This document shows, piece by piece, positions 8,104-42,260 of a stretch of DNA of 64,000 nt. This stretch comes from Candidatus Poribacteria bacterium (GTDB lineage Bacteria > Poribacteria > WGA-4E > JAJDTR01). Every line of letters begins with the position of its first letter. Position 1 is the stretch's first letter. The notes under the pieces were generated by a model. The model had not been told where the DNA came from, did not search any database, and worked only from the letters and a program-made list of their open reading frames with translations. The translations under genes and the position numbers were made by a program. The DNA is taken from NCBI GenBank assembly GCA_965232235.1, contig OZ246960.1, forward strand, positions 3,948,479 to 4,012,478, written 5' to 3'.

Positions 8104-8860
8104 TTGAGAGAATGGAAGCAGGTCGTAATGAGGTCTTTCGGACTATTCGAACGAATGCTGCACCGGAATGCTTTTTGTCGAAGCCTATTCGTAATAGGGA
8201 TAGGTTGTATCCTTGCGTTTGTTGAATCGGGCCAAGCCATTGACGCGAAAATTGCCTTCGGTTCAGACCGTGACGGCAACTCCGAAATCTACGTCATGGA
8301 ATCTGACGGGACAAACCCTGTCAGGCTGACCCAGAATCCGGCAGTTGACGCATATCCCGCTTGGTCGCCCGATGGGACAAAGATTGCCTTTACGTCTACC
8401 CGACGCAACGGATTCACTTGGGAAATCTATGTCATGAACACAGACGGGACAAAGCCGGTGCGCCGACGACAAACAACGGACGCTTTCCTGCATACGATGA
8501 ATCGCCTTCATGGTCGCTGGATGGGAAGCGAATCGTGTTTCAAGCGTGGAACGAAGGCAACCATGGCATCCACGTAATGAACGCCGACGGTGGCAATGTG
8601 CTACGGCTCACACGCCATTTCGCGTGGGACGCTTATCCAGCTTGGTCACCGGATGGATGAGCAATTGCATTTACATCACTCCGAAATTGGGCGTGTGAAG
8701 AAATTTCCTGATAAATCCTGATGGTACCAATCTCACTCAAATTACCAAATCTGTAGGTAGACACATGGCGAGAAGCGCAGCTTGGAGCCCTGCTCCGCAA
8801 CTAGTTTCTCCAAAAGAAAAGTTGGCTACCCAATTTGGGCACGTCAAACAGAGCCGATAA
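8104..8860 (+). pseudogene. frameshifted PD40 beta-propeller gene (pseudogene or assembly indel)
   Basis: PD40 homology is split over at least three frames (8104..8577, 8361..8660, and a third frame giving ...PDGTNLTQITKSVGRHMARSAAWSPAPQLVSPKEKLATQFGHVKQSR* ending at 8860). The C-terminal tail motif is still recognisable. Confidence 0.6.
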
Positions 8861-8872
8861 CCCGCAGGTATA

Positions 8873-19615: not shown

Positions 19616-19640
19616 AAACGCGACGAAGGGCGACTGCTTC

Positions 19641-19665
19641 GTGCCCCTTCAGTACGAAGGGGCAC
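19641..19665. terminator. GC-rich hairpin GTGCCCCTTC-agtac-GAAGGGGCAC between convergent genes
   Basis: Perfect 10-bp stem 26 nt after the argJ stop, in the gap before the convergent - strand gene. U-tract is weak. Confidence 0.4.
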
Positions 19666-19789
19666 AGCCATTACGCAAATAACTCATGTTAAGAGGATTT
19701 GAAACTGCCCCGGAAACGTATTTGCAGGTTAGATTTCTTCAAGAATATTGGATTCTCTTGCGATGTCTCTTAACGTGAGACTTTTCACA

Positions 19790-20788
19790 TCAATCTTCGA
19801 ATGCTGCATCAAATGCGACATCGGACGGTTCGAAGTCATATGCTTTGACCGCAGCACATGATTCGCGTGCACCGTGCTCGCGGTCCATGCCGCTGTCCTC
19901 CCACTCAATCGACAGGGGCCCATCGTGCCCGATGCGGTTCAACGCTCGGATAATCTCCTCAAAGTCGATATTCCCGCGACCGATTGAACGGAAATCCCAA
20001 TAGCGCTGACCATCCCCGAATTCCAAGTGTCCGCCGAACACACCGGAGAGACGCGGGGTGGATGACCACCACACATCCTTCATGTGCACATGGTAGATGC
20101 GGCTGCCGAGACGCTCGATGAACGCCACATAATCAACCCCCTGATATCCGAGGTGGCTGGGATCGTAGTTGAAACCGAAGGTCTCGCGCCCGTCAAGCGC
20201 TTCGACCGCGCGTTCGGCAGTCACAATGTCGAAAGCGATTTCGGTCGGATGAACCTCAAGACCAAACTTGACACCTACTTCGTCGAACACATCAAGAATT
20301 GGATTCCAGCGATTGGCGAAATCCTCGTAGCCCGCATCGATTTGGGCGGGATCGTTCGGCGGGAAGGAATAAAGCAGGTGCCAGATGCTGCTGCCCGTAA
20401 ATCCGTTAACCACGCTCACTCCCAGTTTTGCCGCCGCGCGGGCAGTCGCCTTCATTTCATCGGCGGCGCGTTGACGAACACCCTCCGGGTCGCCATCGCC
20501 CCATATATTTGGGGCGACAATGGCTTGATGCCGGCTGTCGATATTGTCGCAGACCGTCTGGCCCACAAGATGGTTACTGATTGACCAAACTTTAAGTCCG
20601 TACTTGGCTAGAAGGTCGTGTTTCCCCTGACAGTAATCGGGGTCGTCCAAGGCTTTATCTACCTCGAAATGGTCGCCCCAGCAAGCCAACTCCAGGCCGT
20701 CAAACCCCCAGCCGCTTGCTTTCTGCGCTAGCTCTTCCAGTGTCATGTCCGCCCACTGTCCGGTGAACAGTGTAACAGGTCTTGCCAT
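19790..20788 (-). CDS. sugar phosphate isomerase/epimerase (xylose isomerase-like TIM barrel) family protein
   Basis: GAAGGAGG lies 7 nt upstream of the ATG. It has TIM-barrel metal-site-type motifs ([26 protein letters not shown]). Confidence 0.8.
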
Positions 20789-20904
20789 CTTGATGCCTCC
20801 TTCGAATCAATTATATGTTATCCAATACGGATAAATCGTCTCCACAATTATTGCATACTCGGCACGATTTGGGTAGTGCGCGTCCGACAGTGCTGAATTG
20901 CGCG

Positions 20905-22077
20905 CTAAACGGGCGCCGTATAACTTGCGTCAATCCAGGCGCGTTTTGTACCGCTTTCGACCGCTTTATGTATGAAATGAACACCTCGTGCTCCGTCCTG
21001 CACCGTCGGAAAGTCGGTGTCGAATTCGCCCGGTTCCTCGCAGGAAATCTTTGCCGCCATGGTGCGTGTAGCATTGACGTAGATATTCGCGAACGCCTCT
21101 ATGAATCCTTCTGGATGGCCAAACGGAAGACGGGAGTTGTGTTGCGTGATTTCGGCGACATAGTCATTTCCTCGTTTGTAAACCTGTTCGGGGCCATCCG
21201 GAAAACGAACGTAGAGGTAGTTCGGATTTTCCTGATGCCAATCCAGTGAGGCGTCGGTTCCGTAAATGCGAATGCGAAGGTTGTTTTCCTCTCCCACTGA
21301 CACCTGCGATGCGTACAGGATTCCTCTCGCGCCATCTTCGTAACCCACTAAGACATTGCCATCGTCTTCCAATTTTCGTCCCGGTACAAACGTTGTCAGG
21401 TCGGCGCAGATTTCCTCTATTCCCAAACCGGTAATGTAGTGCGCGAGGTTCTCCGCGTGGGAACCGATGTCGCCAATACAGGAAGACACACCCGATCGGT
21501 TCGGATCTGTCCGCCAGACGGCTTGTTTGGCGCCTTCCCCTTCCAAGAGTGTTGCTAGCCATCCCTGCGGGTATTCGACCACAATTTTTCGAACTGTTCC
21601 GAGCTGCCCGCCTCGAACGAGTTCTCGTGCCTGCTTGACCATCGGGTAGCCGGTGTAATTATGCGTTAGTGCGAAGACGGCGTCATGTTGCGCCACCAGC
21701 CGGCATAATTCCTCTGCGTCCTCTACTGTCGTCGTCATTGGTTTGTCGCAAATGACGTGGAATCCGGCTTCGAGGAAATTCTTCGCCGCATCAAAATGTA
21801 CGTTATTCGGCGTGACGATAGACACGAAGTCAATTCGATCGCCTTCGGGTAATTGGCTTTCCTTCTCCGCCATCTCCTGGTATGACCCGTACACACGGCC
21901 CGCGTCTAGCAAAAGCTCTTCGCCCTGTTGGCGTGATTTGTCCGCAGATGAGGAGAACGCGCCCGCGACCAGCTCAATCTCGCCGTCAAGTGCCGCCGCT
22001 TGTCGATGGACAGCACCAATAAACGCGTCCGGACCACCCCCTACCATCCCGTAACGTATTTTTCTTCCGAGTGGCAT
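20905..22077 (-). CDS. Gfo/Idh/MocA family oxidoreductase
   Basis: The start is moved to the internal ATG (MPLGRKIRYGMVGGG...) with GGAG 8 nt upstream. The ORF-track start at 22221 adds 48 aa with no support. The Rossmann motif is IRYGMVGGGPDAFIG. Confidence 0.85.
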   Translation of the reverse strand: MPLGRKIRYGMVGGGPDAFIGAVHRQAAALDGEIELVAGAFSSSADKSRQQGEELLLDAGRVYGSYQEMAEKESQLPEGDRIDFVSIVTPNNVHFDAAKNFLEAGFHVICDKPMTTTVEDAEELCRLVAQHDAVFALTHNYTGYPMVKQARELVRGGQLGTVRKIVVEYPQGWLATLLEGEGAKQAVWRTDPNRSGVSSCIGDIGSHAENLAHYITGLGIEEICADLTTFVPGRKLEDDGNVLVGYEDGARGILYASQVSVGEENNLRIRIYGTDASLDWHQENPNYLYVRFPDGPEQVYKRGNDYVAEITQHNSRLPFGHPEGFIEAFANIYVNATRTMAAKISCEEPGEFDTDFPTVQDGARGVHFIHKAVESGTKRAWIDASYTAPV

Positions 22078-22323
22078 ATTGGTATCTCCTTCAATGTTAT
22101 GTATGTCAACAATCGTGTTGACCAAATTATTTCGAGACTGTTTTTGTTTGTCCGATCTAGGCAACAAATCACTGCACCCAAAACACCGGTGCAGTATAGC
22201 ACGGAGGTGGGTTGTTGTCAATCACATAAACCACCTGAAGGGTGAAGGTCCCTGTAGGAGCGACCTCCCGGTCGCGATTGCATTGTAAGGTGCGATCAAC
22301 CGATACCATTCCGATAAACCGAT

Positions 22324-22843: not shown

Positions 22844-25800
22844 ATGAATAACGAGACAATATTCACCGTCAAAAAGAAACATCTTGACCTACTAGACGAG
22901 GACACAGCAGTTGAGTTCTTTAGCAAACTGCTATGGGCTGAAGCGAACAGACTTGGTCCAGGAACCTGCAAGATTAATGTGCCGAGCCAAACCAAAATCC
23001 CTGATGGTGGAATTGATGCTACCGTTGACGCAGACCGACTTGCGAAACAAAGCGATATAATTGCCCCTGGCAAAAACGGTTACCAAATCCGATCAGGAAC
23101 TGCCTTTAAGCCGTGGCGGGATGGGGATATTCGGAAAGAACTCTTTAAGAAAGGAAGTCCTAAAACCCCTGAAAAAGAGAACTTAAGAGAAAGCATCAAG
23201 GATTGCCTTGATGAATGTGGTATTTACGTTTTAGTTTGCACTGGAATTGATTGTCTTGTTCCTCCCAACCGGAAAAAGGCCTCCAAACTCATTAAAGATT
23301 ACCTAGAAACGTGTGGTTATCCAAAGGCGAAGGTTGAGGTGTGGAGCCAAAACACCCTCCGTTGCTTTCTTGAGTCGTTCCCATCACTGTCTTTGTGGGT
23401 CAATGGACGCAATAGCGCAAAGTTTCAAACGCATGACAGTTGGTCGCGAGATGCGAGCATGCAACGTCCATTTGTTCATGGAGAATCTCAGGATGAATTG
23501 ATTGAAAATCTTCGGAGTGGTTTACGGCGCGCCGATAATAAGGATCCTATGTTAGTGTCCGGGCGGCCCGGCATCGGCAAGACCAGGCTTGTTTTGGAAG
23601 CAACAAACGCCACAGACCTAGCGCCTCTAGTGATTTACGCCCCAGCTGATCAATTCCTTCATGACAAATTTCTAATGGATGAACTTTGCAACGATGAAAA
23701 CGACTTTTCCGCGATTGTGGTAATTGATGATTGCAATCTCCATAGCCGATCAGAAATTTTGGATAAACTGAAGTATCGTGGTCCGAAAATCAAACTCATT
23801 ACCATCTATAATAACCACGAAGAAGCTGCAGGAGATATTACGCCCTATGTTCCCCAACCTCTAGGCGAGGACCAGATTCGCAGCATCATCGAGCAACATA
23901 CGAACGTCTCCGACAACGAAGACAGACGATGGGTTGAGCTCTGCAGTGGATCGCCGAGAGTCGCTCATGTCGTTGGTTGGAATCGGGCAAATTATCCAAG
24001 GGATGTACTCGCCTCTCTGAGCACCGTCAATATCTGGGAGGGCTATATTGTCTCAGTTGACGATCCAAGTCAGGAAAGAACGGAACAACGCAGACGAATA
24101 CTCCGATACATGGCACTGTTTAAGCAATTCGGTTTTGAAGACCCTGTTGGCGAAGAAGCCAAAGCCGTTTCCAAAAAGATTGAGGAGGCGGATCCCCAGA
24201 TTACGTGGACGATATTTCAGGAAATCGTTGATAACCTTAAGAAACGTAAAATCCTTGACGGAGATTATACACTTGCCATCACGCCGAAAGCCCTTCAGAT
24301 TAAGTTATGGATAGAATGGTGGGATATCTATGGCAGGACGTTTGACCTAGATGAATTTATTCAAAACTTTCCCTGCGATTCAAAATTGGTCGAGTGGTTC
24401 TATGAGATGTTTTCGTACGCATCTGAGTCTGGAGTGGCATTAAGCGCTGTGAAGGATCTTCTTGGCCCAGACGGTCCATTCCAACAAAGAAAATATCTGC
24501 AGACAAACCTCGGAAGTAGCTTTTTCTTGGCACTGACTGAAGCAGCCCCGGAATCCGCTCTAGAATGTCTTAAGAAAACGGTTGAGACATGGGATGGAGA
24601 AACCCTATCGCAATTCGTTGGATGTACTTGCGTAGTATTGGCACTTGAAAAGATTGCTGTGTGGAACCGCCTGTTTACAGATGCTGCGGAATTACTCCTT
24701 GCGCTTGGTGACAGTAGTTTTGCTGGACTCTTTTCGCCGGCACCTGGAGGCGTGGCACCGACGGAAGCGTCTCCGAAAGAACGGTTTCCTATCTTGGAGG
24801 GCGCGTTTGAATCGGAATCAAAAGCAAAACGTGTTTTGGCATTGAAGGCGAGTGATGTGGCTTTAGAATCAAGCTATTTCTCGCGATTTGGGAATCCAGA
24901 ATATCAAGGCTTACGTCAGAAACCCAAACTATGGACGCCTAAAACGGAGGGCGAATTTCGGGAGGCACTTCGCCGAGTATGGAAATTACTAGATAGACAG
25001 CTAGCGCGTTTGCCCAACGATGAATGTAAAAAAGGCGCGGCAATTCTGCTAAAACGTGCGCGCGAGATGGTGAGAATCCCAAATCTGGCCAAGATGGTTG
25101 TGGAAACGGTCGCTACAATTGCAAAAGAAGAATATGTAAATAAAAAACACGTTATTGGGACCATTAACCAAATCCTACACTACGATGGCGACAATATACC
25201 TGCGGAAACCCGAGGACTATGGGAGCAACTCATGGGCCAATTGGTTACACCTGACTTTCATTCCATGATGAGACGGTACGTTGGTATGGAATTGCTTGAA
25301 GACCTCCAACTTGGCGACGACCAAAATTACGTAGATCAGGCGCAACTTCAGATTGAAAAGCTCGCCCAACAAGCCATTAGCAATCCATCACGCTTGCAAT
25401 CGGAACTGGCTTGGCTTGTCACAAGCGAGGCCAAGAAGGGATACAATTTCGGGTATGAACTTGGGAAACGAGACAACGGCTTTTCCTTGCTGCTGACGCT
25501 TCTTAAAGCCCAACGAAACGCGGATGACAATGCAAGTACAGCTTTTCTGGGCGGTTATTTCCGTGCGCTCTTTGAATCGGACGCTGACCGGCGAGAAGCA
25601 CAACTTGAAGCGATGATTGATGATACCAAACTAAAACCGCTGATTCCAGCATTGACTTCCCGGTCGGGCCTTACAGATGAGGCGGGATTGCGTCTTCTCC
25701 GCCTCGCAAGAGATGGTACCATGGGTATAAATGACTTCAAAACCTTCACCTATGGCAAAGCCGTTGACGGTTTGTCTAGTGAAATCGTCACGACGTGGGT

Positions 25801-26644
25801 TGAATTTCTACTAGGCGTCAACGACCAAGCAGGTGCATCAATTGCACTGAACCTTTACCACTGCTACTATATCTTCCAGAAACCAGAACGGGATTTACCA
25901 CTTGATGTGACATTCCGATTGCTTCGTCATCAATCCCTGTTTGAAGGATTAGACGGGTATCAATTCGATTCTACCATGACCGCTTATTATTGGACAGAGA
26001 TAGCCAAAGTCTTCCCGCACCTTGATTCCGAAAAGGAATTGGAACTTTCGGAGTTAATGCTTTCCCATTTTGGCGAGGACGGTTCAATTGTTGGCCCTTA
26101 CTCGCGAACATGCTCGGTGCTTGATGAATTGACGCAACAGTATCCCGCTGAGGTCTGGAAGCAGGTTAGTGGACTCTTACAGAGCCAAGGGCATTCTTCA
26201 AGGACCATTGCTCTAGAAAAATGGCTCGGAGAAGGAGCCTCCTGGGGACGAGAAGAATCTAAACCTGCCCTGCTACGAATCCCGTACAAAATAATCTGGG
26301 AGTGGATTGACGAGGATATAGAAAAACGTGCGTGGTATTTCGCTTATAGGCTGGTTCCTATAACCCATTCATCGGAGGAATGGATGATTTCTATGGTAAG
26401 ATCGTTCCTCATCCGCTACGGCAGTCGCAAGGAGGTAAGAAGCGGTCTTATGAGTAACTATTTGTCTGGAGTATCGTTTGGCCCTGCCAGCTCGCACTTA
26501 CAAGCAAAAAAAGAGAAGCTGCTTCAGATAAGGGACATTGAAGATGAAGATGGCGATAATGTCAGGCGTTGGGTTGATGAATTTGTGGCGGAACTGGAAG
26601 GGGGAATTGGACGGGAAACGATGCGTGAGGAGAGAGAACATTAA
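22844..26644 (+). CDS. STAND-type P-loop NTPase with an N-terminal Mrr-like (PD-(D/E)xK restriction-endonuclease fold) domain and a long C-terminal helical sensor region; Avs-like antiviral protein candidate
   Basis: The N-terminus matches the Mrr-cat pattern (AVEFFSKLLWAEANRLG...IPDGGIDATVD...NGYQIRSG...GIYVLVCTGID). Walker A is GRPGIGKT. Walker B is AIVVIDDCNL. About 900 aa of predicted alpha-helical repeats follow. It has a lower GC than its neighbours. Confidence 0.75.
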   Translation: MNNETIFTVKKKHLDLLDEDTAVEFFSKLLWAEANRLGPGTCKINVPSQTKIPDGGIDATVDADRLAKQSDIIAPGKNGYQIRSGTAFKPWRDGDIRKELFKKGSPKTPEKENLRESIKDCLDECGIYVLVCTGIDCLVPPNRKKASKLIKDYLETCGYPKAKVEVWSQNTLRCFLESFPSLSLWVNGRNSAKFQTHDSWSRDASMQRPFVHGESQDELIENLRSGLRRADNKDPMLVSGRPGIGKTRLVLEATNATDLAPLVIYAPADQFLHDKFLMDELCNDENDFSAIVVIDDCNLHSRSEILDKLKYRGPKIKLITIYNNHEEAAGDITPYVPQPLGEDQIRSIIEQHTNVSDNEDRRWVELCSGSPRVAHVVGWNRANYPRDVLASLSTVNIWEGYIVSVDDPSQERTEQRRRILRYMALFKQFGFEDPVGEEAKAVSKKIEEADPQITWTIFQEIVDNLKKRKILDGDYTLAITPKALQIKLWIEWWDIYGRTFDLDEFIQNFPCDSKLVEWFYEMFSYASESGVALSAVKDLLGPDGPFQQRKYLQTNLGSSFFLALTEAAPESALECLKKTVETWDGETLSQFVGCTCVVLALEKIAVWNRLFTDAAELLLALGDSSFAGLFSPAPGGVAPTEASPKERFPILEGAFESESKAKRVLALKASDVALESSYFSRFGNPEYQGLRQKPKLWTPKTEGEFREALRRVWKLLDRQLARLPNDECKKGAAILLKRAREMVRIPNLAKMVVETVATIAKEEYVNKKHVIGTINQILHYDGDNIPAETRGLWEQLMGQLVTPDFHSMMRRYVGMELLEDLQLGDDQNYVDQAQLQIEKLAQQAISNPSRLQSELAWLVTSEAKKGYNFGYELGKRDNGFSLLLTLLKAQRNADDNASTAFLGGYFRALFESDADRREAQLEAMIDDTKLKPLIPALTSRSGLTDEAGLRLLRLARDGTMGINDFKTFTYGKAVDGLSSEIVTTWVEFLLGVNDQAGASIALNLYHCYYIFQKPERDLPLDVTFRLLRHQSLFEGLDGYQFDSTMTAYYWTEIAKVFPHLDSEKELELSELMLSHFGEDGSIVGPYSRTCSVLDELTQQYPAEVWKQVSGLLQSQGHSSRTIALEKWLGEGASWGREESKPALLRIPYKIIWEWIDEDIEKRAWYFAYRLVPITHSSEEWMISMVRSFLIRYGSRKEVRSGLMSNYLSGVSFGPASSHLQAKKEKLLQIRDIEDEDGDNVRRWVDEFVAELEGGIGRETMREEREH

Positions 26645-26670
26645 TCGACCATAATCTCAAGGAAAACCCC

Positions 26671-27210
26671 ATGGCAAACTATCAAGAACTCGCAAATCTC
26701 GTATGGAACGTAGCCGACGATGTCCTCCAAGGCTTATTCAAACCCCACGAATACGGCGACATCACCCTCCCGTTCCTCGTCCTGCGCCGTCTGGACTGCA
26801 TCCTAACGGAAGACGACCGAAAAGACAAAGCCATTGACGTCCACAACCGCTTCAAAGATGGCGTCCCCGAAGAATCCCTGCCCCGGATTATTCTGAACGA
26901 GACGAAATCCAGTTTCTACAACACCTCCCGCTACGACCTCCCCCGACTAAAAGCCGACCCCAACAACATCCGCCTCAACTTCACCAACTACCTCAACGGC
27001 TTCACCAAGGATGTGCGGGACATCATCGAAAACTTCAACCTCGATCAGTTCATTGACCGGCTTTACAACGCAACCTATGATTCTTTCCAACCGTGGACGG
27101 ATGGCTCAGCGCACCATAACGTCCGCAAGATTTCCATAGCGTTTCTGATGCCCGATTCTGGAATGCTCTGCAACGAAGTTACTTCCTCGGAGACAGACTG
27201 TGCTTTATGA
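26671..27210 (+). CDS. DNA N6-adenine methyltransferase N-terminal (HsdM_N-like) domain fragment; probable gene remnant
   Basis: AAGGAAAA RBS 26 nt after the upstream stop. The first ~135 aa match the methylase N-terminal domain (LVWNVADDVLQGLFKPHEYGDITLPFLVLRRLDCIL...FYNTSRYDLPRL...NFTNYLNGFTKDVRDIIENF). No catalytic motifs follow. The last ~45 codons run antisense to the 3' end of the convergent methyltransferase gene. Confidence 0.5.
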   Translation: MANYQELANLVWNVADDVLQGLFKPHEYGDITLPFLVLRRLDCILTEDDRKDKAIDVHNRFKDGVPEESLPRIILNETKSSFYNTSRYDLPRLKADPNNIRLNFTNYLNGFTKDVRDIIENFNLDQFIDRLYNATYDSFQPWTDGSAHHNVRKISIAFLMPDSGMLCNEVTSSETDCAL

Positions 27211-30065
27211 ATCTCAAACATGTACGACACCACAGCGTCAATCTCCTGTCGCACAGGATCTATGGCTGCATCCTTGGCCGGACGCAATGATTGGTTAGAC
27301 AGAACGTCAAATCGCGCCGCTGCCATTTCGAGGATCGCGTCCGACAGTCTGTCTAGGCGCGGGCACGGGATCTTCCTCAAAGCCCCAATCTGCGTCGTCG
27401 ACCGCCCATTTTGCGTCCGTTGACCCTGTGTCCAGTGTACGATCATTCCAAGCGTCGAGTTCCACCACAGCGCAAACGCCTTCCGCACTCGGACATCCTC
27501 ATGTATGAGAGCAGTCCATGCCCGTCCGCCAAGCGCGGGGTGCGCGGTCGACGCAGACAATAGCGCCTGGCTCGTCCACCTAAGATTGCGGGCGTAAAAC
27601 AATGTGCTGACATACAATCTCATCTGTTCGCCCTGCTCCGTCGACCCCACCCCGGGTGGTGCCAATCCCTTGTGGGTCGGTAATACTCGCAGCGAGCGCT
27701 GCGTTTTGGAGGATGCTTCCCACAAAGCTCGATCTACTCCAATCGCATCGGTCTCGCTCGTTACCGGATGAAATTCAAATGCACCTATCGGCTCATTCCC
27801 CTTCGGATGTCCGATTAAGTGGTGCGTTGGTCCCACATGAAAGATGTCTTCAATGGTCCCCATCTCCAATCCCAAAGGAATTGGTGTCCCCGCAATATGA
27901 TCGAGCGTCCCCCGTGTAAGCGCATCGGCGGCCAGTGCCAACCCTCCATGGATTACACCAACCATGTTCCACGGCAATCCTTCACCATTCGCATACATCA
28001 CTGTGATGCACCCAATTTCGCTGTTACCGACGGTAATTGGGTGTGTCATGTTGGTCGCGGTGCACTGCGCCTTCGCTTGCTCAATTGCCCTCGTCACTTC
28101 TCTCGCCTCGCCGTTCCGAGTGCACGGTTCATAAAGTGTCACACAATGCAGCAAAGCACGATCCTTCTTTTGAGGATGCTTGCGCCGCGTTGCAACTAGC
28201 AACATCTCCTCCATCCCAGTGTCTGCCGAAAAACTTGCCTGTTTGAGCGAAGCCCCGCTTGCCGTCGCAATCAGAACAATATCCGTGAATTCCGCTTCGA
28301 CCATTCGCCGCGTTTCCGTCCATGTATCGGCGAAAGCGCATGTGAGGGGTAATACAAACCCAATTCGCCCTGTTCCTGCCTTGACCTTATGCTTGGCTAG
28401 CACAAGAAATGACGCAGCCATCCCAGCTCGCAGCCGCGCGGGTTTGTCGTTCACTAGGACGCCCCATCGTTTCTGACAGCGCTTCCGATCCTCTTCAGTC
28501 AAACCCTTCAAATCAAAAGCGCTCTGGCCGCCGCGTGTCCTAGAATACGGCGGATTCATAAGAATCCAGTCCACGCTGCCGTGACGTACTTCCACGCTTG
28601 ACGCCTCGTGTTGGACCCCACCAGCCCTACCGAGACTTTGCCCGAACAAATCTTCTGTAAACGTAGCCTCTAGATATTCGAGCGCACCAGTCAGTGCTGT
28701 CCTACCACCAACCTTTACCCAGCCAATCTGCGTTTCACCGTAACTTTCCCCTTTCCCTATATTAGCGAGACTTGAGGAAGTCAGGTGCGCTGCAATCGGA
28801 CTAATGTCAGTGCCCCTTAACCCGTGTTCCATCGCGCCGCAATGTAGTTCCGCGACAGAGTCCTCCGTTCCTCCGGCCCATTCATGCAGAGTTTGTACGC
28901 GCAAATAGCCTTCCCTTAAAAGCGTACCCGTACCGCAGGCCAAATCCGCGATAATCGACCGGCGCAGCAAGTCTGACCGGCCCCACTCCGACTCTAGTTT
29001 GTCCGATTGCCGAATCGTTAGACTCGCAAGCAACTCCGCTGTCGCCGGCTGCGTATAGAACGCCGCGCTCTCCTTCCGATCTGAAGCAAGCTTAGGAAAT
29101 AACTCCGCCCCCACGTTTATGTGTTGCCCCAAATCCGCATCCTCAATCATACCCACCGCTTCAATCAACCGTTTGAGAGCTTCGGTCGTTCCGGCACGAT
29201 GAAAGTCACCGCAAACTGCTAGCGCATTGACAGCTGGCTCAAAAATCGACCGCCAGTTGATTTCGATTATTCGCCGCCACGTTTCGACTTGCTCGAATGG
29301 ATTAGGAGTGACACCGGATACCGTCCGAACCGGTGGAATGTCATTAACTCCCTGAACTTGCAGCCGTTGCTGGATCAATAGCGCGTTTAACCAGAGTACC
29401 ATAGTAGTCTGTAATCCCTCCAATGGAGAGTTTTGCCCCACTTGTCCCGCAATTTTCCGTTGCGCGTTCTCGTGGAGAGTCGATTTCAGCGTTTCCGCAG
29501 CTTGTTTCACTAACTGAGCTACCTCTGCTGCGCGGGCCTCCACCACTTCATTAGGCATCGCGGCGGCGGCGATCAGTCGCCTAGCATCATGAACCGTGCC
29601 TTGAATGAACCCTTTAGCTGGCCACCGACGTGTAGTTCCGTCACTCAACCCGCTTTGGTGCAGTGCATACGCAATCTGCTGCAATCCGTCCTTTAACTTC
29701 GCGTATACGGAATCTGCAGAAAGTTCTCGATATTCCTCAGGAATGTGGACCGCCAGAACCGCCAGCAGCGGTCTGCCTCCTCGTGTCGTTTTCTGACCTA
29801 GCCTGTCCTGAGCATCCCTATCGGCATCTGCCGCATTGAATGATGCCTCAATTGCTGCGGCTGGCATCTGCGGGTCATCGATCAAGATATCCGCTCGACC
29901 GGAACTCAGAGTACCCGTCCGTTCTGCCAGAATGTATTCATCAGAATGGCCGAGCCAGCGAGCCTCTGTTTCCGCCAACACCTTGCCAAACTCAATGTTG
30001 AACGTGTGTTCGTGGAGTTTCCCTTTCGATTGCTTAACTAAGTACAGTTGTTCCGTTTCTGGCAT
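27075..30065 (-). CDS. MmeI/PglX-family (Type IIG/IIL-like) N6-adenine DNA methyltransferase, possibly a methyltransferase-nuclease fusion
   Basis: SAM motif I reads ADLACGTGTLL. Motif IV reads WILMNPPYSRTRGG. The N-terminus resembles the MmeI-family nuclease module (EFGKVL...GRADILIDD...AIEAS). A ~490-aa C-terminal target-recognition-type region follows. GC is higher than in the neighbours. Confidence 0.8.
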   Translation of the reverse strand: MPETEQLYLVKQSKGKLHEHTFNIEFGKVLAETEARWLGHSDEYILAERTGTLSSGRADILIDDPQMPAAAIEASFNAADADRDAQDRLGQKTTRGGRPLLAVLAVHIPEEYRELSADSVYAKLKDGLQQIAYALHQSGLSDGTTRRWPAKGFIQGTVHDARRLIAAAAMPNEVVEARAAEVAQLVKQAAETLKSTLHENAQRKIAGQVGQNSPLEGLQTTMVLWLNALLIQQRLQVQGVNDIPPVRTVSGVTPNPFEQVETWRRIIEINWRSIFEPAVNALAVCGDFHRAGTTEALKRLIEAVGMIEDADLGQHINVGAELFPKLASDRKESAAFYTQPATAELLASLTIRQSDKLESEWGRSDLLRRSIIADLACGTGTLLREGYLRVQTLHEWAGGTEDSVAELHCGAMEHGLRGTDISPIAAHLTSSSLANIGKGESYGETQIGWVKVGGRTALTGALEYLEATFTEDLFGQSLGRAGGVQHEASSVEVRHGSVDWILMNPPYSRTRGGQSAFDLKGLTEEDRKRCQKRWGVLVNDKPARLRAGMAASFLVLAKHKVKAGTGRIGFVLPLTCAFADTWTETRRMVEAEFTDIVLIATASGASLKQASFSADTGMEEMLLVATRRKHPQKKDRALLHCVTLYEPCTRNGEAREVTRAIEQAKAQCTATNMTHPITVGNSEIGCITVMYANGEGLPWNMVGVIHGGLALAADALTRGTLDHIAGTPIPLGLEMGTIEDIFHVGPTHHLIGHPKGNEPIGAFEFHPVTSETDAIGVDRALWEASSKTQRSLRVLPTHKGLAPPGVGSTEQGEQMRLYVSTLFYARNLRWTSQALLSASTAHPALGGRAWTALIHEDVRVRKAFALWWNSTLGMIVHWTQGQRTQNGRSTTQIGALRKIPCPRLDRLSDAILEMAAARFDVLSNQSLRPAKDAAIDPVRQEIDAVVSYMFEIHKAQSVSEEVTSLQSIPESGIRNAMEILRTLWCAEPSVHGWKES

Positions 30066-30350
30066 TGACTTGTCTCTCTCAAGTAGAATTCAGTAAAGCG
30101 TGAATTAAGCCGAGGTGTGCGGCGAATTGATTCTGTAGGCCTGTTCCGTTCGTTTACCACGGTCGCATCGCACGTATCCCAACCCAGATATACCACCATT
30201 CACCGCTCGGTTATAAGCTCTCTCCATCATTTCATGAATCGTCATCACTGTCAAGTATTAGCGCTACAGTGTCGAACTGTGCAAATCTAGAAAGTACCCG
30301 CTTTTAGACCACCTTCGCTTCCTTAAGGTATAATTGCAAACCGGCGTTAC

Positions 30351-30379
30351 TTGACAAAAGCAGCCAATCATGGTATTGT
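30351..30379 (+). promoter_or_regulatory. sigma70-like promoter TTGACA-N17-TATTGT
   Basis: It is placed ~24 nt upstream of the RBS of the small ORF at 30403. Confidence 0.4.
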
Positions 30380-30402
30380 ATAAGGGAAAGGAGGTGAGAA
30401 AA

Positions 30403-30621
30403 ATGGCCGAAAACACGGACGAAGAAAAATGGGAAAAGGTTTTCATGATTGTTGGAGCACAATCTTCTGAAGGAAGGCACAAGATAGAGATATTTGAGCC
30501 ATCTGGGAAACCGATTAGCCAAGGTAAACTGAGCAACAGAAGAGTTGAGAGTGGGATTAACAACTACAGCGACAGAACACAATATTATGCTGTTATTGAT
30601 TTCCCAAAGGTTCAAGAATAG
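30403..30621 (+). CDS. small hypothetical protein (72 aa) in a self-contained promoter-RBS-terminator unit
   Basis: AGGAGGTGA lies 7 nt upstream of the ATG. A strong terminator follows 12 nt after the stop. No recognisable domain. The ORF-track start at 30370 would translate the RBS. Confidence 0.55.
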   Translation: MAENTDEEKWEKVFMIVGAQSSEGRHKIEIFEPSGKPISQGKLSNRRVESGINNYSDRTQYYAVIDFPKVQE

Positions 30622-30632
30622 TGAACAATACT

Positions 30633-30655
30633 GGCGGGGGGTACCGCCCCCCGCC
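30633..30655. terminator. strong intrinsic terminator hairpin GGCGGGGGG-tacc-CCCCCCGCC
   Basis: 9-bp all-GC stem plus a G-U closing pair, followed by A/T-rich sequence. Confidence 0.6.
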
Positions 30656-30762
30656 TAAATTCAAATTGTCAAGCAAAAACGCATAACACAAGGCAGGTAT
30701 ACCCTACTCTACTAATTGCAAATTCTTTAAATATTGCCAATATAATCACTGGAGGACTGCAT

Positions 30763-31818
30763 ATGAGGAAAGTCGTAATTAAGATGTTAGCACTGTTCGT
30801 GCTATTGAGTGGTGTGGCGCAAGCCAGTGAAATCATCGCCTTTACGAGCACGCGCGATGGGAATTCGGAAATCTATGTCATGGATGCTGATGGAGCCAGT
30901 CCGATTAACTTGACAAACAGTCATGCTGATGATTGGGAGCCAGCTTGGTCACCTGCCGGCAAACAGATTGCCTTCCATACCAGTCGGGATGGGAATGCTG
31001 AAATCTACGTCATGGGTGCTGATGGAGACAATCCAATTAACTTGACAAACAATCCTGCGGATGACTGGGAGTTAGCGTGGTCACCCGACGGCGAACAGAT
31101 TGCCTTCCACACCAGTCGGGATGGGAACGCTGAAATCTACGTCATGGATGCTGATGGAGACAATCCAATTAACTTGACAAACAGTCCCGCGGATGAATGG
31201 AAACTAGCTTGGTCACCCGATGGCGCACAGATTGCCTTTAACACCAGTCGGGATGGGAACGCTGAAATCTATCTCATGGATGCTGATGGAAACAATCCAA
31301 TTAACTTGACAAACAATCCTGCGGATGACTGGGAGCTAGCGTGGTCACCCGACGGCAAACAGATTGCCTTCCACACCAGCCGAGATGGGAACGCTGAAAT
31401 CTACGTCATGGGTTCCGATGGAAGAAATCCAATCAACCTGACAAACAATCCTGCGGATGACTGGGAGCTAGCGTGGTCACCTGACGGCAAACAGATTGCC
31501 TTCCATACCAGCCGGGATGGGAACGCTGAAATCTACGTCATGGGTGCTGATGGAGATAATCCAATTAACGTATCTAACAGTCCTGCGGATGAATGGAAGC
31601 TGGCCTGGTCACCCCAGAGCGCACAGATTGCCTTTAGCTCTAGTCGGGATGGGAACGCTGAAATCTACGTCATGGGTGCTGATGGAGACAATCCAATAAA
31701 CTTGACAAACAATCCTGGTTCTGACGAGTCACCGGCTTGGTTCGATTCTCGTGTTGCAACGGCGGTGGAACCTGCACGAAAGTTGAGCACTACATGGGGA
31801 AGGATAAAAACGAAGTAA
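30763..31818 (+). CDS. secreted PD40 beta-propeller protein composed of seven near-identical 44-aa repeats
   Basis: GGAGG lies 7 nt upstream of the ATG. The signal peptide is MRKVVIKMLALFVLLSGVAQA. The unit ADDWELAWSPDGKQIAFHTSRDGNAEIYVMGADGDNPINLTNNP occurs 7 times. The tail is VATAVEPARKLSTTWGRIKTK. Confidence 0.85.
   Translation: MRKVVIKMLALFVLLSGVAQASEIIAFTSTRDGNSEIYVMDADGASPINLTNSHADDWEPAWSPAGKQIAFHTSRDGNAEIYVMGADGDNPINLTNNPADDWELAWSPDGEQIAFHTSRDGNAEIYVMDADGDNPINLTNSPADEWKLAWSPDGAQIAFNTSRDGNAEIYLMDADGNNPINLTNNPADDWELAWSPDGKQIAFHTSRDGNAEIYVMGSDGRNPINLTNNPADDWELAWSPDGKQIAFHTSRDGNAEIYVMGADGDNPINVSNSPADEWKLAWSPQSAQIAFSSSRDGNAEIYVMGADGDNPINLTNNPGSDESPAWFDSRVATAVEPARKLSTTWGRIKTK
30826..31753 (+). 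repeat. 132-bp tandem repeat array (about 7 copies, >90% identical) inside the PD40 gene
   Basis: Successive units are nearly identical at nucleotide level (gatgggaa(c/t)gctgaaatctacgtcatgg(a/g)tgctgatggaga(c/t)aatccaattaacttgacaaaca(a/g)tcctgcggatga(c/a)tggga...). Confidence 0.8.
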
Positions 31819-32688
31819 TAAAGCAGGGCCTTGTCGGCGTTTCTAAATCCCTAGTCCGAGTAACTTGATCGGATTTCGAGGTAAGAAGGAGAGTCGAAAG
31901 TGGGCCGTTAGCTGCGACGGCAACCTCAAGTAAAGACCAGTAAAATCTCTCCTACCCGATTCATCGGTCGCAATCCGTAACCCAATCCACAGAAAACGGC
32001 GATGTTTCAATCCTCCAAAAAGACACAATGACATCCAGAAAAACGGCGCCCAGCGCAATTCTGTGCTTTCCTTTTCCGGGTTTTGGACAAAATCTCGTGA
32101 TTACGACCGATTAACGCTCAGTCGCTGCTAATCCGACGCGCTCGAGTTGGCGCGCTCGAGTTGGCGCGGCAATTCGCTAACTTCAAGCAGGAATCATCCA
32201 CTGGGATTCTCTCCGATGCTCGCTATCAGCTAGACTCTAACCAATAGACAAGCCACGGTTACTGAAACGATCCCCCCACACCGGTCTATCACAATTTCTG
32301 GCGCCCGGACGCTGAAATCATCTGTGCATATTTACGCGCCACCCTCATCCTCAAAATCGAACTGATGCCGCAGAATTAATAACTCAATCGTATATGACAG
32401 TGAGAGAGCAAGACCTGTTCGGCTCTCACATCTGGAATTGGGACGAATGGTTCGTGGCTAAACTCTGGATAGCGGATTTGGTAGAGAGCGAATCAATTGC
32501 TTCACCTCTATCGTAACAGCTTCTGGATGATTCCGCTTGCTACGGCCATGTCCTCAATCCATTTGTGGTAGTTCGTCCAGAGCCGGTTGAAACTAACTCA
32601 CGAAACTCTCGCGCGTCGACGCAAGGAAGGTTGACGAGAAACCAAATCTCGTGAAAAGATCTTACCCAAATACGAAACGGAGCGCATA

Positions 32689-33429
32689 ATGAACGTAACG
32701 TTTGATTCAAATGTGTGGGAAAAGGTGATTGATGAAGACGATCACCACTATGTACAAATAAAGAACAAGATTCGCACCGGCGAAATACGCCCATACATCT
32801 GTGAAATAGCTTTAAGCCTAGAAGCCATTGCGAAGAAATTGAGAGCTGAGTTTTTTAAGAGCTATAAACCCAGTATAAAATTTGAGAATTTACCGACCGA
32901 AGATGGTATGGTACGCATGCGGATGTGTATTGAACCAAATAATGAACTTCACCCAGGTTTCCATCCGAAACTGCGGTGTAAGCTTCTTAAGGCACGCAAT
33001 CTAGGATTCCGTGTGCTCAGGATGACAAGTTTTGGAACGGTGCGTCCTAATGACATCCCGGATGACATGTATGTAGACTTCGTCAGTATTGATGAATTCT
33101 GGCCATATGCCGAACCACTGGCAAGGTGCAGTGAACATATAACGGCACTGGGTTGTGGGCAAGCACCGTACAACCAACTGAAAGAGAGATTTGATGATAG
33201 CCAGGGGATACCATCTGAATTCGATAAGAGCTTCCGGGAAGCCGTTGCGGAATGGGTTGACGGCGACTCACTTTCGGCACACTATGCCTCTGGTAATGAG
33301 TGGTTCTGTACAGATGACAAAGCCGGGAATGCCGGCACTGGATCAATATTTCATCCTCAAAATAGAGCCCGATTAAAAAAGAATTTCGGTATCAAGATAA
33401 TCTCGAGTCATGATGCTGCTCGACTCTAA
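32689..33429 (+). CDS. hypothetical protein; N-terminus weakly PIN-like (VTFDSNVWEKVID)
   Basis: 246-aa ORF after an 870-bp non-coding gap. No firm domain call. Confidence 0.45.
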   Translation: MNVTFDSNVWEKVIDEDDHHYVQIKNKIRTGEIRPYICEIALSLEAIAKKLRAEFFKSYKPSIKFENLPTEDGMVRMRMCIEPNNELHPGFHPKLRCKLLKARNLGFRVLRMTSFGTVRPNDIPDDMYVDFVSIDEFWPYAEPLARCSEHITALGCGQAPYNQLKERFDDSQGIPSEFDKSFREAVAEWVDGDSLSAHYASGNEWFCTDDKAGNAGTGSIFHPQNRARLKKNFGIKIISSHDAARL

Positions 33430-35702: not shown

Positions 35703-37595
35703 TTGATGAAATGTTCGCTCTACACCGTTCTTGTGTTGCTATGGGCGCTAGCATCACCCCTAGCGGCACAACCCGTGCACATACCCGACCCAAACCTACG
35801 CACCGCCGTGCGCGAATCCATTGATCTTCCAAATGGCGCACCGATTACTCGTGATGCTATGCTTCAGTTGATTAAGCTTCGTCCTGGAAGCCGCGGCATT
35901 GAAAATCTATCCGGTGTGGAGTTCGCAAAAAACCTCAGAGAACTATCAATCTGGGGCAACCCCATAACCGACCTCAGTCCTATCGCCGGACTGACTAAGT
36001 TGGAACTGCTGTACATGTGGGGGACACCGATTTCGGATATTACACCACTAGCGAATCTGGCGAATCTGATAAATTTGCGTCTGAACTATTGCAACGTTGC
36101 CGATATAAGCCCAGTTGCACATTTGCTTAAACTTGAGAAACTGTCATTAGCCGGAAATGGGATCGCCGACGTTGGACCTCTTGCCAATTTAACGCAACTC
36201 CGACTCCTCAACCTCGAAAACAATGGCATTGTGGATGTGCGTCCGTTGGCGGGCCTGCGTCGATTAGAAACATTAACAATAGAGAACAACCGTATAACAG
36301 ACCACAGTCCACTTGACGTATTGATGTTAGACCACTTTTCACACGACCTCGATACGCCGTGCGACATGGCGCCGCTGCCTTTGGAGCCGCGCATCGAAGG
36401 CAGAAACTTTCCATCTCTTTTCACCGCGTGGAGCGATAAAGATCGGTGGCCAATGTTCGATTTGATTTTTTGCTGTCCCCGGTTCGACGCCCGGCTTCGT
36501 GAAATAGGAGACGGGTTTCATTTCCGCACGGCTCACGCATCGTGGGAAGGGCCAGCTAGCGTGCGCGACGCTTACTTGGCGCGAAATCCAAATATGGTGT
36601 TCCTCCACGGTCTGTCTGTTATTATCCATGAGCTTGACAGCTTGCCCGAAGATTCTCCCTACTGGCTGCGTGATGAGCACGGCGGCATAGTCGTTAAATG
36701 GGGCATTTACGGCTTAATGGATCTTAATCATCCGGGTTGGCAGCAGCGGATGATTGACATCGCGGTGACGATAGACCGGTGTGGTTTGTACGACGGAATT
36801 TTTGTCGACGCATGGGGTAAAGGAGGACATCCTGGACAGGTAGCTATTCTGAAAGGAATACGCGAACGGGTGAGGGACAACTTTCTTATTATGGTCAACA
36901 CGAATTACAATCAAGCACCCGCCTCGGCGCCGTACATCAACGGATTATTTATGGAAACCGTTTTCCCGCAAAGAAAACGCGATCCTGAAGACATTGAATC
37001 GCGGTTGGTTACAATTGAAAATACTCTGAAATGGGCGGAAAGCACACTGCTGGAGCCCCGAATTACGGGACTCTGTGGCGACTACTATAGCGATCAACCA
37101 CCGGACAGCCCGACGAATACGCGGTGGATGCGGGCTATGACTACCTTGGGGCTGACGTTTAGCGACGATTATGTCGCTTTCCCGTTACGACATGGACCTT
37201 GGTACGATTTTTGGAACGCCGACCTCGGACGCCCGGTCGGAGAAACGCTGCAACTTTATGACAGTCGAGAGGGGCTTTATATCCGGGAATTCACGAACGG
37301 TTGGGCGGTGTATAACCACAGCGGGGCGGCTCAGATTGTTACACTGCCCGAGGAAGTTCAATCGGCGGCAACCGGTATAAGCAATACAGATCACCCCGTA
37401 CTCAACCTGGACGGCGACATCTTTCTCCGCATAGAGGCTTCGTTGCCGGGCGATCTTAACGGCGACGGCACGGTTAACATTCTGGATTTAATTATTGTTG
37501 CCGAATCAATCGGCACGGACAAACGCGAGGCTGCCTTGAACGGCGACGGTGTGGTGAACGTGTTCGATTTGGTTTTCGTCGCGAATGCTTTTTAG
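35703..37595 (+). CDS. secreted leucine-rich-repeat protein with a central uncharacterised (possibly glycoside-hydrolase-like) domain and a C-terminal dockerin module
   Basis: The signal peptide is MMKCSLYTVLVLLWALASPLAA. About 8 LRRs of 22 aa are present (L..L..L.L..N.I.D..PLA). The C-terminal tandem Ca-binding dockerin repeats read DLNGDGTVNILDLIIV and LNGDGVVNVFDLVFV. Confidence 0.8.
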   Translation: MMKCSLYTVLVLLWALASPLAAQPVHIPDPNLRTAVRESIDLPNGAPITRDAMLQLIKLRPGSRGIENLSGVEFAKNLRELSIWGNPITDLSPIAGLTKLELLYMWGTPISDITPLANLANLINLRLNYCNVADISPVAHLLKLEKLSLAGNGIADVGPLANLTQLRLLNLENNGIVDVRPLAGLRRLETLTIENNRITDHSPLDVLMLDHFSHDLDTPCDMAPLPLEPRIEGRNFPSLFTAWSDKDRWPMFDLIFCCPRFDARLREIGDGFHFRTAHASWEGPASVRDAYLARNPNMVFLHGLSVIIHELDSLPEDSPYWLRDEHGGIVVKWGIYGLMDLNHPGWQQRMIDIAVTIDRCGLYDGIFVDAWGKGGHPGQVAILKGIRERVRDNFLIMVNTNYNQAPASAPYINGLFMETVFPQRKRDPEDIESRLVTIENTLKWAESTLLEPRITGLCGDYYSDQPPDSPTNTRWMRAMTTLGLTFSDDYVAFPLRHGPWYDFWNADLGRPVGETLQLYDSREGLYIREFTNGWAVYNHSGAAQIVTLPEEVQSAATGISNTDHPVLNLDGDIFLRIEASLPGDLNGDGTVNILDLIIVAESIGTDKREAALNGDGVVNVFDLVFVANAF

Positions 37596-38187: not shown

Positions 38188-38475
38188 TGACGACTGATAA
38201 TTTGACAGGTGCTTGGTTCATTGGTTCGATTATTTGGCACACCAACCCTAGCTTCTCACGCCGCTTTTTCACAACTGCCAAATCTTTCGCATTCTCTTTT
38301 TCGCTTCAGCGGGGCGCTACGTCTGTAGCAAACCGTAAACCCCACTTGCACTCCAGCCTGCGATTACGCGAGCAATGCACGAGTCATCAAGGGAGATCAA
38401 TCGAAGGGACAGATCAACTGAGCGAATAACGCAGCCGGAAGTAAATCCTGTGCCCGGTCTTTGGTTAATCAATAC

Positions 38476-38656
38476 GGCAAACTGCCATTAAATCCTCGAT
38501 TCCCTCCCTCACCGCCCACCACCCCTCCCAATCCGTGAAATCCGTGTAATCTGCGTAATCTGTGATTCAGACCACCCACCACCATTTCCACTCTCACCGC
38601 CGCCCCTAATCCTGCCAATCCAAAAATCACATGAATCACAGTTCAGACAATCCCCT
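38476..38656. repeat. ~180-bp direct repeat, copy 1 (strand-asymmetric, C/A-rich, G-poor)
   Basis: It is ~90% identical to 38881..39069. It contains the short tandem unit AATCCGTG / AATCTGCG. Confidence 0.6.
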
Positions 38657-38788
38657 TCACCAACCACCCCGTCGCCACTCTGCCCCGTCCTCTACAGGTC
38701 GCGATGCCCCACTCCCCCGTGAAATCAAACCGGCGGACAAAGAGCGCTATCCGAATCATCAACCCCGACACAATTCCCATATTCCAAT

Positions 38789-38855
38789 CTCCCCACTGCA
38801 GCGCAGTACAATGTCAATAGAAACGAACGATACCCGTACACGCACTCCAGCGGAG
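38789..38855. repeat. dispersed ~67-bp element, copy B
   Basis: It matches 22324..22390. It lies between the two ~180-bp direct repeats. Confidence 0.5.
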
Positions 38856-38880
38856 TGCAATGTTTTTGGTTTATCCCTGC

Positions 38881-39069
38881 GGCAAACCGCCATCAAATCC
38901 TCAGTTCCCTCCCCCGACTCCCACCATCCCTCCCAATCCGTGAAATCCGTGAAATCCGTGTAATCTGCGTAATCTGTGCTTCAGACCACCCACCACCATT
39001 TCCACTCTCACCGCCACCCCTAATCCTGCCAATCCAAAAATCACATGAATCACAGTTCAGACAATCCCC
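38881..39069. repeat. ~180-bp direct repeat, copy 2
   Basis: See copy 1. This copy has one extra AATCCGTG unit. Confidence 0.6.
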
Positions 39070-41768: not shown

Positions 41769-41789
41769 AACTGATTCAAAATCTCAGCT

Positions 41790-42260
41790 ATACGTAGCGT
41801 GGAATCAAGAGAGTGAATAGCGACCGCGATAGAGATCCCCTGCCCACCATTCCATATTTCCGTCGGGTGGGAGGGGCATCTTGCCCCGATTGATTACGAA
41901 ACGATCAACTGACCGAATCGTATCAAGCGAATGAATAATAAGCGATCAACCGACTGATTAAGGAGGGCGATAGGAATTCCGCCTCTGTAGGAGCGATCTC
42001 CGAATCGCGACAATCCTAAAACGAGTCATCAATCCGCTATATGTAGGGTGGAATCAAGCGAATGGATAGTGAGCGATCAAGGGAGATCAAACGAACGATC
42101 AAAGGAATGAATAATGACTGCGATAGAAATCCCATAGAGATCTTTGCGCGATAGAAAGTCCTGATAGAAATCCCTCGACCTCCCGGTCGCGATTTCCTCT
42201 TTGCGCGTAAGTTCTGGACTGAACTAAACAATTACGTAAATCTTGTAGCGATCAACTGAG
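41790..42260. repeat. cluster of short dispersed word repeats (GCGATAGARATCCC, CTGTAGGAGCGAYCTCC..TCGCGA, GATCAAGGGAGATCAA, GCGATCAACYGA)
   Basis: The same words occur at 22250-22420 and 38390-38420. They are irregularly spaced and therefore not a CRISPR array. Confidence 0.5.

Follow-up and report, generated by a model that had tools for sequence, protein, structure and literature searches.

A putatively exported PD40 beta-propeller gene of Candidatus Poribacteria, built of seven tandem 132-bp blade units, and its near-identical six-unit relative

Beta-propellers are the textbook example of a fold that grows by the amplification of small units, and the evidence for this comes mostly from finished proteins. 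The window analyzed here, a stretch of 64,000 nucleotides from a Candidatus Poribacteria genome (contig OZ246960.1, positions 3,948,479 to 4,012,478), contains a propeller gene consisting largely of seven tandem repeats, each the length of one blade, and a near-identical relative of this gene lacks exactly one of them. The open reading frame (ORF) at 30763-31818 on the plus strand encodes 351 amino acids, comprising a signal peptide, seven in-frame units of 132 bp (44 residues) of the PD40 type, and a 22-residue tail. The signal peptide (MRKVVIKMLALFVLLSGVAQA, 30763..30825), as read from the translation, has a predicted cleavage site after AQA and lacks a lipobox cysteine; it is kept in the orthologues, and AlphaFold models its residues 2-19 as a helix with low confidence. 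The pattern suggests that the propeller protein would be exported through the Sec pathway. Unit 1 (30826..30957) is a divergent edge unit that gives strands 2-4 of the first blade, and is followed by the homogeneous units 2-6 (30958..31617; 5 x 132 bp, or 44 residues each, starting at 30958, 31090, 31222, 31354, and 31486). Unit 7 (31618..31749) is the second edge unit, and its last strand, ESPAWF (residues 321-326), completes blade 1 and closes the ring. The tail (RVATAVEPARKLSTTWGRIKTK) and the stop codon occupy 31750..31818, where motif scans detect the Poribacteria-wide motif ...V.P..K..T.WG.[LIV]K.

The gene is preceded by a Shine-Dalgarno-like GGAGGA (30751..30756, plus strand), read from the sequence 6 nt 5' of the ATG and kept in the close relative L001 that is described below. 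Directly 5' of the propeller gene, at all five orthologous loci, lies a small non-repetitive ORF (30403..30621, plus strand) with a DNA identity of 89.5-99%, which encodes 72 residues from the ATG at 30403 chosen by public gene calls, or 83 residues from the ATG at 30370. Only five relatives of this ORF were found among 5.8 billion proteins, and it has neither a Pfam match nor a signal peptide. Its DNA is 90-95% conserved, compared with 72-91% for the adjoining intergenic DNA; its coding status is uncertain because the nonsynonymous and synonymous distances (dN and dS) are about equal between the window and the orthologous locus L081, and it may be a conserved nucleotide element instead of a protein. 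Between the small ORF and the propeller gene sits a G+C-rich hairpin (GGCGGGGGG-TAC-CGCCCCCCGCC, 30633..30655), which was detected by a scan for terminator-like structures on the minus strand and is kept in L001 with compensating loop changes; it may have a terminator-like role. On the other side of the gene, a 3' untranslated stretch (31819..32069, plus strand) is 89% identical to L001 and to a further relative, L080, and is not alignable with L081 or L082. The scan places a terminator-like hairpin with a T-rich tail (32052-32067) at the end of this conserved stretch. A structured RNA within 31816-32075 was considered and dropped, as the folding is no better than that of shuffled sequences (z = -0.35), and Rfam gave no matches at E<=1 over 29900-33000. 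Just past the block shared with L001 and L080, a perfect 14-bp direct repeat (CGCGCTCGAGTTGG) is present in 2.3 copies at 32137-32168.

The repeat array itself is reported by Tandem Repeats Finder as one array at 30856-31717 with a period of 132, 6.5 copies, 87% matches, no indels, and a score of 1246; read in frame, it resolves into seven 132-bp units at 30826-31749, a regularity far beyond chance. The initial annotation, which had described seven tandem repeats of PD40 blades at this position, was thus correct in count and place, and the PD40 family (PF07676) is recognized in five separate stretches with 165.7 bits against a cut-off of 20.9. The degree of identity had been overstated, as the units were said to be more than 90% identical. 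The pairwise DNA identity of inner units 2-6 ranges from 83.3% to 91.7% (mean 88.2%; protein mean 86%), units 1 and 7 share only 69-78% of their DNA and 61-73% of their protein sequence with other units, all pairs taken together average 81% (DNA) and 76% (protein), and at least 90% DNA identity is reached in only 4 of the 21 pairs. A second statement, that the units are far more alike than the blades of other paralogs, is borne out: among the blades of the eight paralogs at 59-9883, identity is only 60-65% for DNA and 43-51% for protein. According to the criterion of Pereira and Lupas (2022, PMC9218822), a recently amplified propeller has at least two consecutive blades and a median blade-to-blade identity above 60%, and the protein identities of 76% across the seven units and 86% across units 2-6 place the gene within that class. 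A higher-order repeat of three units, [2-3-4][5-6-7], was also considered. It is hinted at by a second Tandem Repeats Finder period of 396 bp and by a SPADEWK motif common to units 3 and 6, but is weakly supported, as the longer period gives 88% matches compared with 87%, and a neighbor-joining tree pairs unit 3 with unit 6 but unit 5 with unit 4.

Differences between units are enriched at third codon positions (0.26 per site, compared with 0.15), and the inner units of the window, compared as paralogs, have a dS of 0.37 and a dN/dS of 0.21. With dN/dS values of 0.12-0.21 among units, it could be argued that the array is old and that purifying selection at the protein level alone has held units alike that share no recent common ancestry. 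This explanation is scarcely credible, since the proportion of synonymous differences (pS) among inner units is 0.23-0.36 in four genomes, far from saturation, and the blades of the sister paralogs, under the same kind of constraint, have drifted to the 60-65% DNA identity given above.

The product is predicted to fold as a closed seven-bladed ring. The AlphaFold model, built on a 50-sequence alignment, has a mean predicted local distance difference test score (pLDDT) of 86.9 and a predicted template-modeling score (pTM) of 0.82, and contains 28 strands, that is, seven times four. Units 2-6 exceed a pLDDT of 90, and the tail lies outside the fold as an unstructured extension (pLDDT 40-48). The sequence repeat and the structural blade are offset by one strand. 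Foldseek searches of the Protein Data Bank (PDB) return TolB and S9 propellers at E values of 1e-20 to 1e-17, with template-modeling (TM) scores of 0.61 for the six-bladed TolB, 0.70-0.76 for seven-bladed S9 peptidase propellers, and 0.80, normalized to the target, for the designed seven-bladed propeller WRAP-T. Units 2-7 of the window with the tail, used as a six-unit proxy, are modeled with a pLDDT of 89.7 and a pTM of 0.84, and superpose on the six-bladed TolB propeller with a TM score of 0.86 and a root-mean-square deviation (rmsd) of 1.9 A over 263 columns. The models thus predict that the same blades can close as a ring of six or of seven. The protein is not TolB proper, which was ruled out because the TolB equivalog model TIGR02800 scores 269.6 bits, below its cut-off of 343.15, and only the propeller part, from about profile position 240 onward, is matched; no N-terminal TolB domain precedes the propeller, which follows immediately on the signal peptide. 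A type IX secretion C-terminal domain, defined as 70-100 residues matching TIGR04183 or PF18962, was likewise rejected, as the propeller protein matches neither model.

The protein ends in ...VEPARKLSTTWGRIKTK, the motif part of which is encoded at 31792-31818. The same [ST]xWGx[ILV]K ending closes the eight genes of the 59-9883 region that end at 1619, 2704, 3902, 4783 (a LamG gene), 5719, 6825, 7951, and 9883, with motif sites at 1578-1619, 2663-2704, 3855-3902, 4754-4783, 5678-5719, 6760-6825, 7922-7951, and 9842-9883, confirming the suggestion that the family tail has been kept although the gene lies outside the main paralog array. Beyond the window, the motif ends 120 ORFs of at least 150 codons in 33 of 82 fetched loci. 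All but two of these loci are labeled Candidatus Poribacteria; of the others, L020 is labeled "uncultured bacterium" and L054 (Latescibacterota) has one weak match, and the motif is absent from the fetched loci of Chloroflexota, Gemmatimonadota, and other Latescibacterota. The consensus of 123 unique tails, from the fetched loci and the window, is PAW[FLY]N[SP][PA][FL][SA]V[SA]PAGKx[FL]TxWGx[LIV]KQ, followed by two to seven residues, usually three or four, and the stop codon. Nearly all exported PD40 propellers carry it, more than 100 of them in Poribacteria assemblies, and so do some LamG/jelly-roll proteins with signal peptides (window 3806-4783). Neither Pfam nor NCBIfam contains a curated model for the tail, and tails searched alone had no NCBIfam match at E<=10. 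The tail may be a lineage-specific sorting or attachment tag, and it is a more novel side observation than the repeat array.

The PD40 paralogs at 59-9883 form a tandem array of nine propeller genes, interrupted by one LamG gene (3806-4783), and comparable arrays, of up to 10 genes in 13 kb, are found at the Poribacteria loci L040, L045, and L077. Some copies in the window look damaged, namely 8104-8577, which is truncated at 157 residues, and 4796-5719, which has an internal gap. At the protein level, 4796-5719 and 5752-6825 hardly differ in their N-terminal halves, and a recent duplication or conversion of whole genes is suggested. The sole likeness to TIGR04183 is in the paralog at 6986-7951, where residues 254-293 score 21.8 bits (cut-off 23) inside a blade and not in the tail. 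Many WD40-type proteins of Poribacteria have been described with questionable type IX tails and without secretion genes to match (PMC3909097), and the "Por secretion tails" reported there could be similar spurious blade matches.

Orthologues of the whole locus were found by two routes. A scan of species-representative genomes, with one genome per species, gave many remoter PD40 genes, mostly from Poribacteria, and one close relative, L001, on the 6.63-Mb chromosome OZ240209.1 of a Candidatus Poribacteria metagenome-assembled genome. Three further loci, L080, L081, and L082, were located as genomic loci encoding relatives of the small ORF, which in each of them precedes the same propeller gene. 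The 351-residue protein itself is not on record in an exact look-up of public assemblies, nor was the small ORF of the window retrievable, and the proteins neighboring the propeller in the window are on record on a contig of 5,626,040 bp. Metagenome contigs of the Joint Genome Institute (JGI) contained no match to a 31-mer from the tail, nor to a 27-mer pattern with two N positions that fits all five orthologues. As the neighboring genes differ between genomes, the small ORF and the propeller gene were suspected to form a mobile block. This was rejected, since synteny is kept on the left in L080, which has ArgJ, an AP-endonuclease-2-family protein (AP_endonuc_2), and a GFO/IDH/MocA oxidoreductase (GFO_IDH) as in window 18410-22221, and on the right in L081, which matches window 32528-32920; the differences are inserted islands. 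The retained synteny shows that this is one chromosomal locus.

A comparison of repeat number across relatives, which the initial annotation had proposed as a check on its expectation of variable copy number, gives seven units in the window, L080, L081, and L082, and six in L001, where the ORF is intact with 307 residues. The L080 gene lies on a contig of 2x coverage and contains two one-base homopolymer insertions (at about 6400 and in unit 6), which are probably sequencing errors. L082, on a 15x contig, carries a TAC-to-TAA stop in unit 1 (6424-6555) and has the most diverged inner units (83%), so its orthologue may be a decaying copy. Copy number does vary between relatives. The units shared by L001 and L080 are 98.5-100% identical, and L001 lacks exactly unit 5 of L080. 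Seven units are the older state and L001 carries a deletion, because unit 5 of the window has a 93% identical match in unit 5 of L080. Sliding the breakpoint along the alignment places it within unit positions 86-119, a 34-bp tract that units 4 and 5 have in common without a mismatch, and at position 120, the first distinguishing base past the tract, unit 4 of L001 has the unit-5 base. The junction is therefore the expected product of out-of-register homologous recombination or of replication slippage; the unequal crossing-over that had been proposed, or slippage, accounts for this 132-bp difference.

As repeats are a classic source of mis-assembly, the seven units of the window, or the difference between seven and six, might be artefacts, a concern that the low coverage and the two homopolymer indels of L080 reinforce, and the initial annotation had warned that short-read assemblies could have collapsed or miscounted the units. 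The evidence makes such an error very improbable. The units differ by 8-17% and are easily told apart, period and register are identical in five independent assemblies, unit 5 of the window has its orthologue in L080, the L001 junction has the appearance of a clean recombinant, and the neighbors of the window gene are on the 5.6-Mb contig mentioned above. Long-read assemblies resolve the array well, and it should not be dismissed as an artefact.

The relative age of the array can be read from how the units of different genomes relate to one another. In all five genomes, unit 1 clusters with unit 1 and unit 7 with the last unit, and the terminal units are orthologous. A seven-unit array with these ends is found even in genomes with only 72-78% identity in the flanking intergenic DNA, and the amplification therefore predates their common ancestor. 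Between the window and its closest relatives (L080/L001), the inner units are positional orthologues, with 93.0% identity between units at the same position, compared with 87.1% between units at different positions and 88.2% within a genome, and with zero lineage-diagnostic columns. The orthologous dS of 0.23 is smaller than the paralogous dS of 0.37; together with the positional pairing, this means that the array is older than the split of the window and L080 and has not been homogenized since. Orthologous dN/dS is 0.14-0.15 at that dS, a substitution pattern which indicates that the propeller gene is under purifying selection. In the comparison with L081, identity is about 88% whether units are paired by position, paired out of position, or compared within the window (88.5% positional, 88.7% non-positional), leaving no positional signal, and the same is true of the inner units of the window against L082; the equality with L081 fits an amplification just before the common ancestor. 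Leftover blade fragments of the kind that Pereira and Lupas describe were sought in the non-coding flanks, and only weak matches inside other paralogs were found. Dating of the amplification by synonymous distances was abandoned, since these are inconsistent between edge units, inner units, and flanks, and only the order of events is claimed here.

Some exchange between units evidently took place after the amplification. Within L081, the inner units are 91.8% alike, a higher value than the 87-88.5% obtained against L082 or the window, and units 3 and 4 of this locus reach 97% identity. Motif patterns also differ between clades: Lys at unit position 38 occurs in units 3 and 6 in the window clade and only in unit 2 in L081 and L082, in both of which units 5 and 6 have Gly at that position. 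The homogeneity of L081 and these clade-specific motifs therefore point to some later conversion or turnover. It might be proposed that constant gene conversion and unequal crossing-over keep the inner units alike in every lineage, an explanation to which the L081 values lend support, as do the partial clustering of inner units by genome in the neighbor-joining tree, the missing positional signal of L081 and L082 against the window clade, and the divergence of the edge units, which would escape homogenization in such arrays. Continuous concerted evolution is nevertheless unlikely, because the units of the window clade have remained positional orthologues with paralogous distances exceeding orthologous ones, and because only two columns are diagnostic between the window and L081 (P about 0.03). 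Homogenization instead appears to be episodic and not continuous. The first suggestion for this array, recent expansion or ongoing concerted evolution, is supported only in part: the amplification predates the common ancestor and no homogenization has occurred since the window/L080 split, but homogenization does occur in episodes, of which units 3 and 4 of L081 are an instance.

The clade-specific motifs and the loss of positional signal between clades could also be taken to mean that each lineage re-amplified one blade between conserved end units, so that the arrays would be analogous and not orthologous, for which the homologues of the WRAP propeller provide a precedent (PMC9218822). This possibility is distinctly improbable. 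All of the arrays are equally long, save for the single deletion of L001, a single array is clearly common to the window, L001, and L080, and L081 and L082 retain a weak positional signal relative to each other (87.0 vs 85.1%). Moreover, very few bases are fixed within one array yet different in another; only 0-2 columns are fixed differently between arrays, and wholesale independent re-amplification is therefore not favored.

The explanation that is considered probable is that the gene encodes a Sec-exported, stand-alone PD40 propeller that arose by amplification of a single blade and later gained and lost blades by recombination. One 132-bp unit encodes exactly one four-stranded blade of 44 residues in this TolB-type beta-propeller, the last strand of unit 7 would join the three strands of unit 1 to close the seven-bladed ring, and the short flexible tail would carry the motif common to many exported Poribacteria proteins. 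A single blade unit would have been amplified not long before the five genomes found here diverged from their common ancestor, and the units would then have diverged mostly independently under purifying selection. Because a unit has the length of one blade, divisible by three, and units still have identical tracts of at least 30 bases in common, out-of-register recombination or replication slippage would occasionally add, remove, or overwrite whole blades in frame. One such event deleted a unit in the near-identical relative, giving a six-unit gene whose product is predicted still to close as a ring. By analogy with other PD40 propellers, the protein is likely to act as a periplasmic or surface binding scaffold, a role proposed because of the signal peptide, the absence of an enzyme domain, and the known roles of the family. 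The array anatomy and its conservation, the purifying selection, the one-unit deletion with its junction, and the predicted folds are results of the analysis, whereas export, the biochemical role, and a functional six-unit protein are inferred.

Several observations weigh against this explanation. The contrast between seven and six units rests on one low-coverage assembly (L080, 2x) together with unit 5 of the window, and the stop codon in unit 1 of L082 implies that at least one lineage can do without the gene or is losing it. For the window compared with L081, pS is 0.46 for the terminal units, compared with 0.26 for the inner units and 0.25 for the signal peptide and tail, and a single clock fits poorly across these segments, for which site counts are small. 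The six-bladed fold was modeled on the proxy of window units 2-7 instead of on the L001 protein. Two further proposals are tentative and, taken together, doubtful: natural Poribacteria populations would contain functional alleles of six and of seven units side by side, and the tail would be a sorting or attachment signal, so far undescribed, that only Poribacteria possess. In the first case, the locus would amount to a natural experiment on a single recombination step that converts a protein between closed rings of six and seven blades.

Other features of the window stand apart from the propeller gene. The stretch at 22844-30065, which is missing from L080, has the appearance of a defense-island-style insertion. 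Its ORFs encode a PD-Lambda-4_A-like protein of 1266 residues (E 3e-21), a 179-residue N-terminal fragment of HsdM that overlaps the end of the next gene, and, on the minus strand, a protein of 996 residues with only a weak mad2 match. At the same position, L001 has a 655-residue ORF that, by the look of its sequence, may encode an OLD-family ATPase, and L081 has SLFN_AlbA_2 and Peptidase_M23. An unusual domain mix is encoded by the 630-residue ORF at 35703-37595, in which leucine-rich repeats occur with a GHL15 domain (putative glycosyl hydrolase) and, at the C-terminus, a type I dockerin. Dispersed short sequences at 38450-38978 and 41787-41953 are 72-85% identical to unrelated parts of other Poribacteria loci (L001 78-188, 1647-1847, and 12426-12461; L082 4070-4220) and include a AATCCGTGA / AATCCGTGAAATCCGCGA mini-repeat; they may be a repeat element of these genomes.

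The gene can be set beside several known systems. More than 10,000 propellers with a blade identity above 60% have been described in 32 ECOD propeller families, including the DPPIV and S9 types, and show variable blade numbers, distinct edge strands, and decayed copies (Pereira and Lupas 2022, PMC9218822). Experiments have established that rings of more than one size can be formed from identical blades (Afanasieva et al. 2019, PMC6805158). Sponge microbiomes are enriched in WD40 repeats and in TolB-like and WD40-like propellers (PMC5735121, PMC3909097), and metatranscriptome evidence has been cited for WD40 expression (PMC5735121). The whole-blade change at the present locus points to continuing turnover among the numerous PD40 genes of Poribacteria.

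The closest resemblance is to recently amplified propellers such as WRAP (Nostoc punctiforme Npun_R6612), in which one blade has been tandemly amplified into a whole propeller. As in that class, the blade identity here is far above 60% and the similarity is visible in the DNA, edge strands or units are distinct from the amplified core and kept among homologues, and blade number varies among relatives, some copies of which are disrupted or decaying. Unlike WRAP, the blades are of the PD40/TolB type and not WD40, and they form a small, putatively exported stand-alone propeller instead of the C-terminal domain of a STAND ATPase. The array also appears older, with about 88% identity and many synonymous changes, of which WRAP has none; and, in contrast to the WRAP class, the orthologues mostly share one array, with a single-unit deletion mapped to its junction.

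TolB of the Tol-Pal system (PDB 1c5k, 2hqs) shares the PD40 family, the blade architecture, and export by a signal peptide, which is probable here, and the six-unit version superposes on it as described. The present protein differs in lacking the N-terminal alpha/beta domain, in having many paralogs and a lineage-specific tail, and in having seven blades where TolB has six. The propellers of S9 peptidases (PDB 8wt1, 5yzm) are seven-bladed members of the same superfamily and the best seven-bladed structural matches, but the peptidase domain is absent here, and the protein ends 22 residues past the propeller. In the streptococcal alpha C/Rib surface proteins, recombination adds and removes long repeats of a length divisible by three without a frameshift, giving rise to size variants among strains. 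Those proteins are open, bead-like arrays of unlimited number, whereas ring closure confines the propeller to a narrow range, with six or seven units seen.

The propeller gene fits the known recently amplified class and adds to it an exported PD40 example, as judged from its signal peptide, in Poribacteria, together with a natural pair of near-identical seven- and six-unit alleles with a mapped junction. One step in the gain and loss of blades can here be read directly, in near-identical genomes that differ by one blade and in which the junction is visible, and the two alleles offer a natural sequence pair for testing how far ring closure tolerates a change in blade number.

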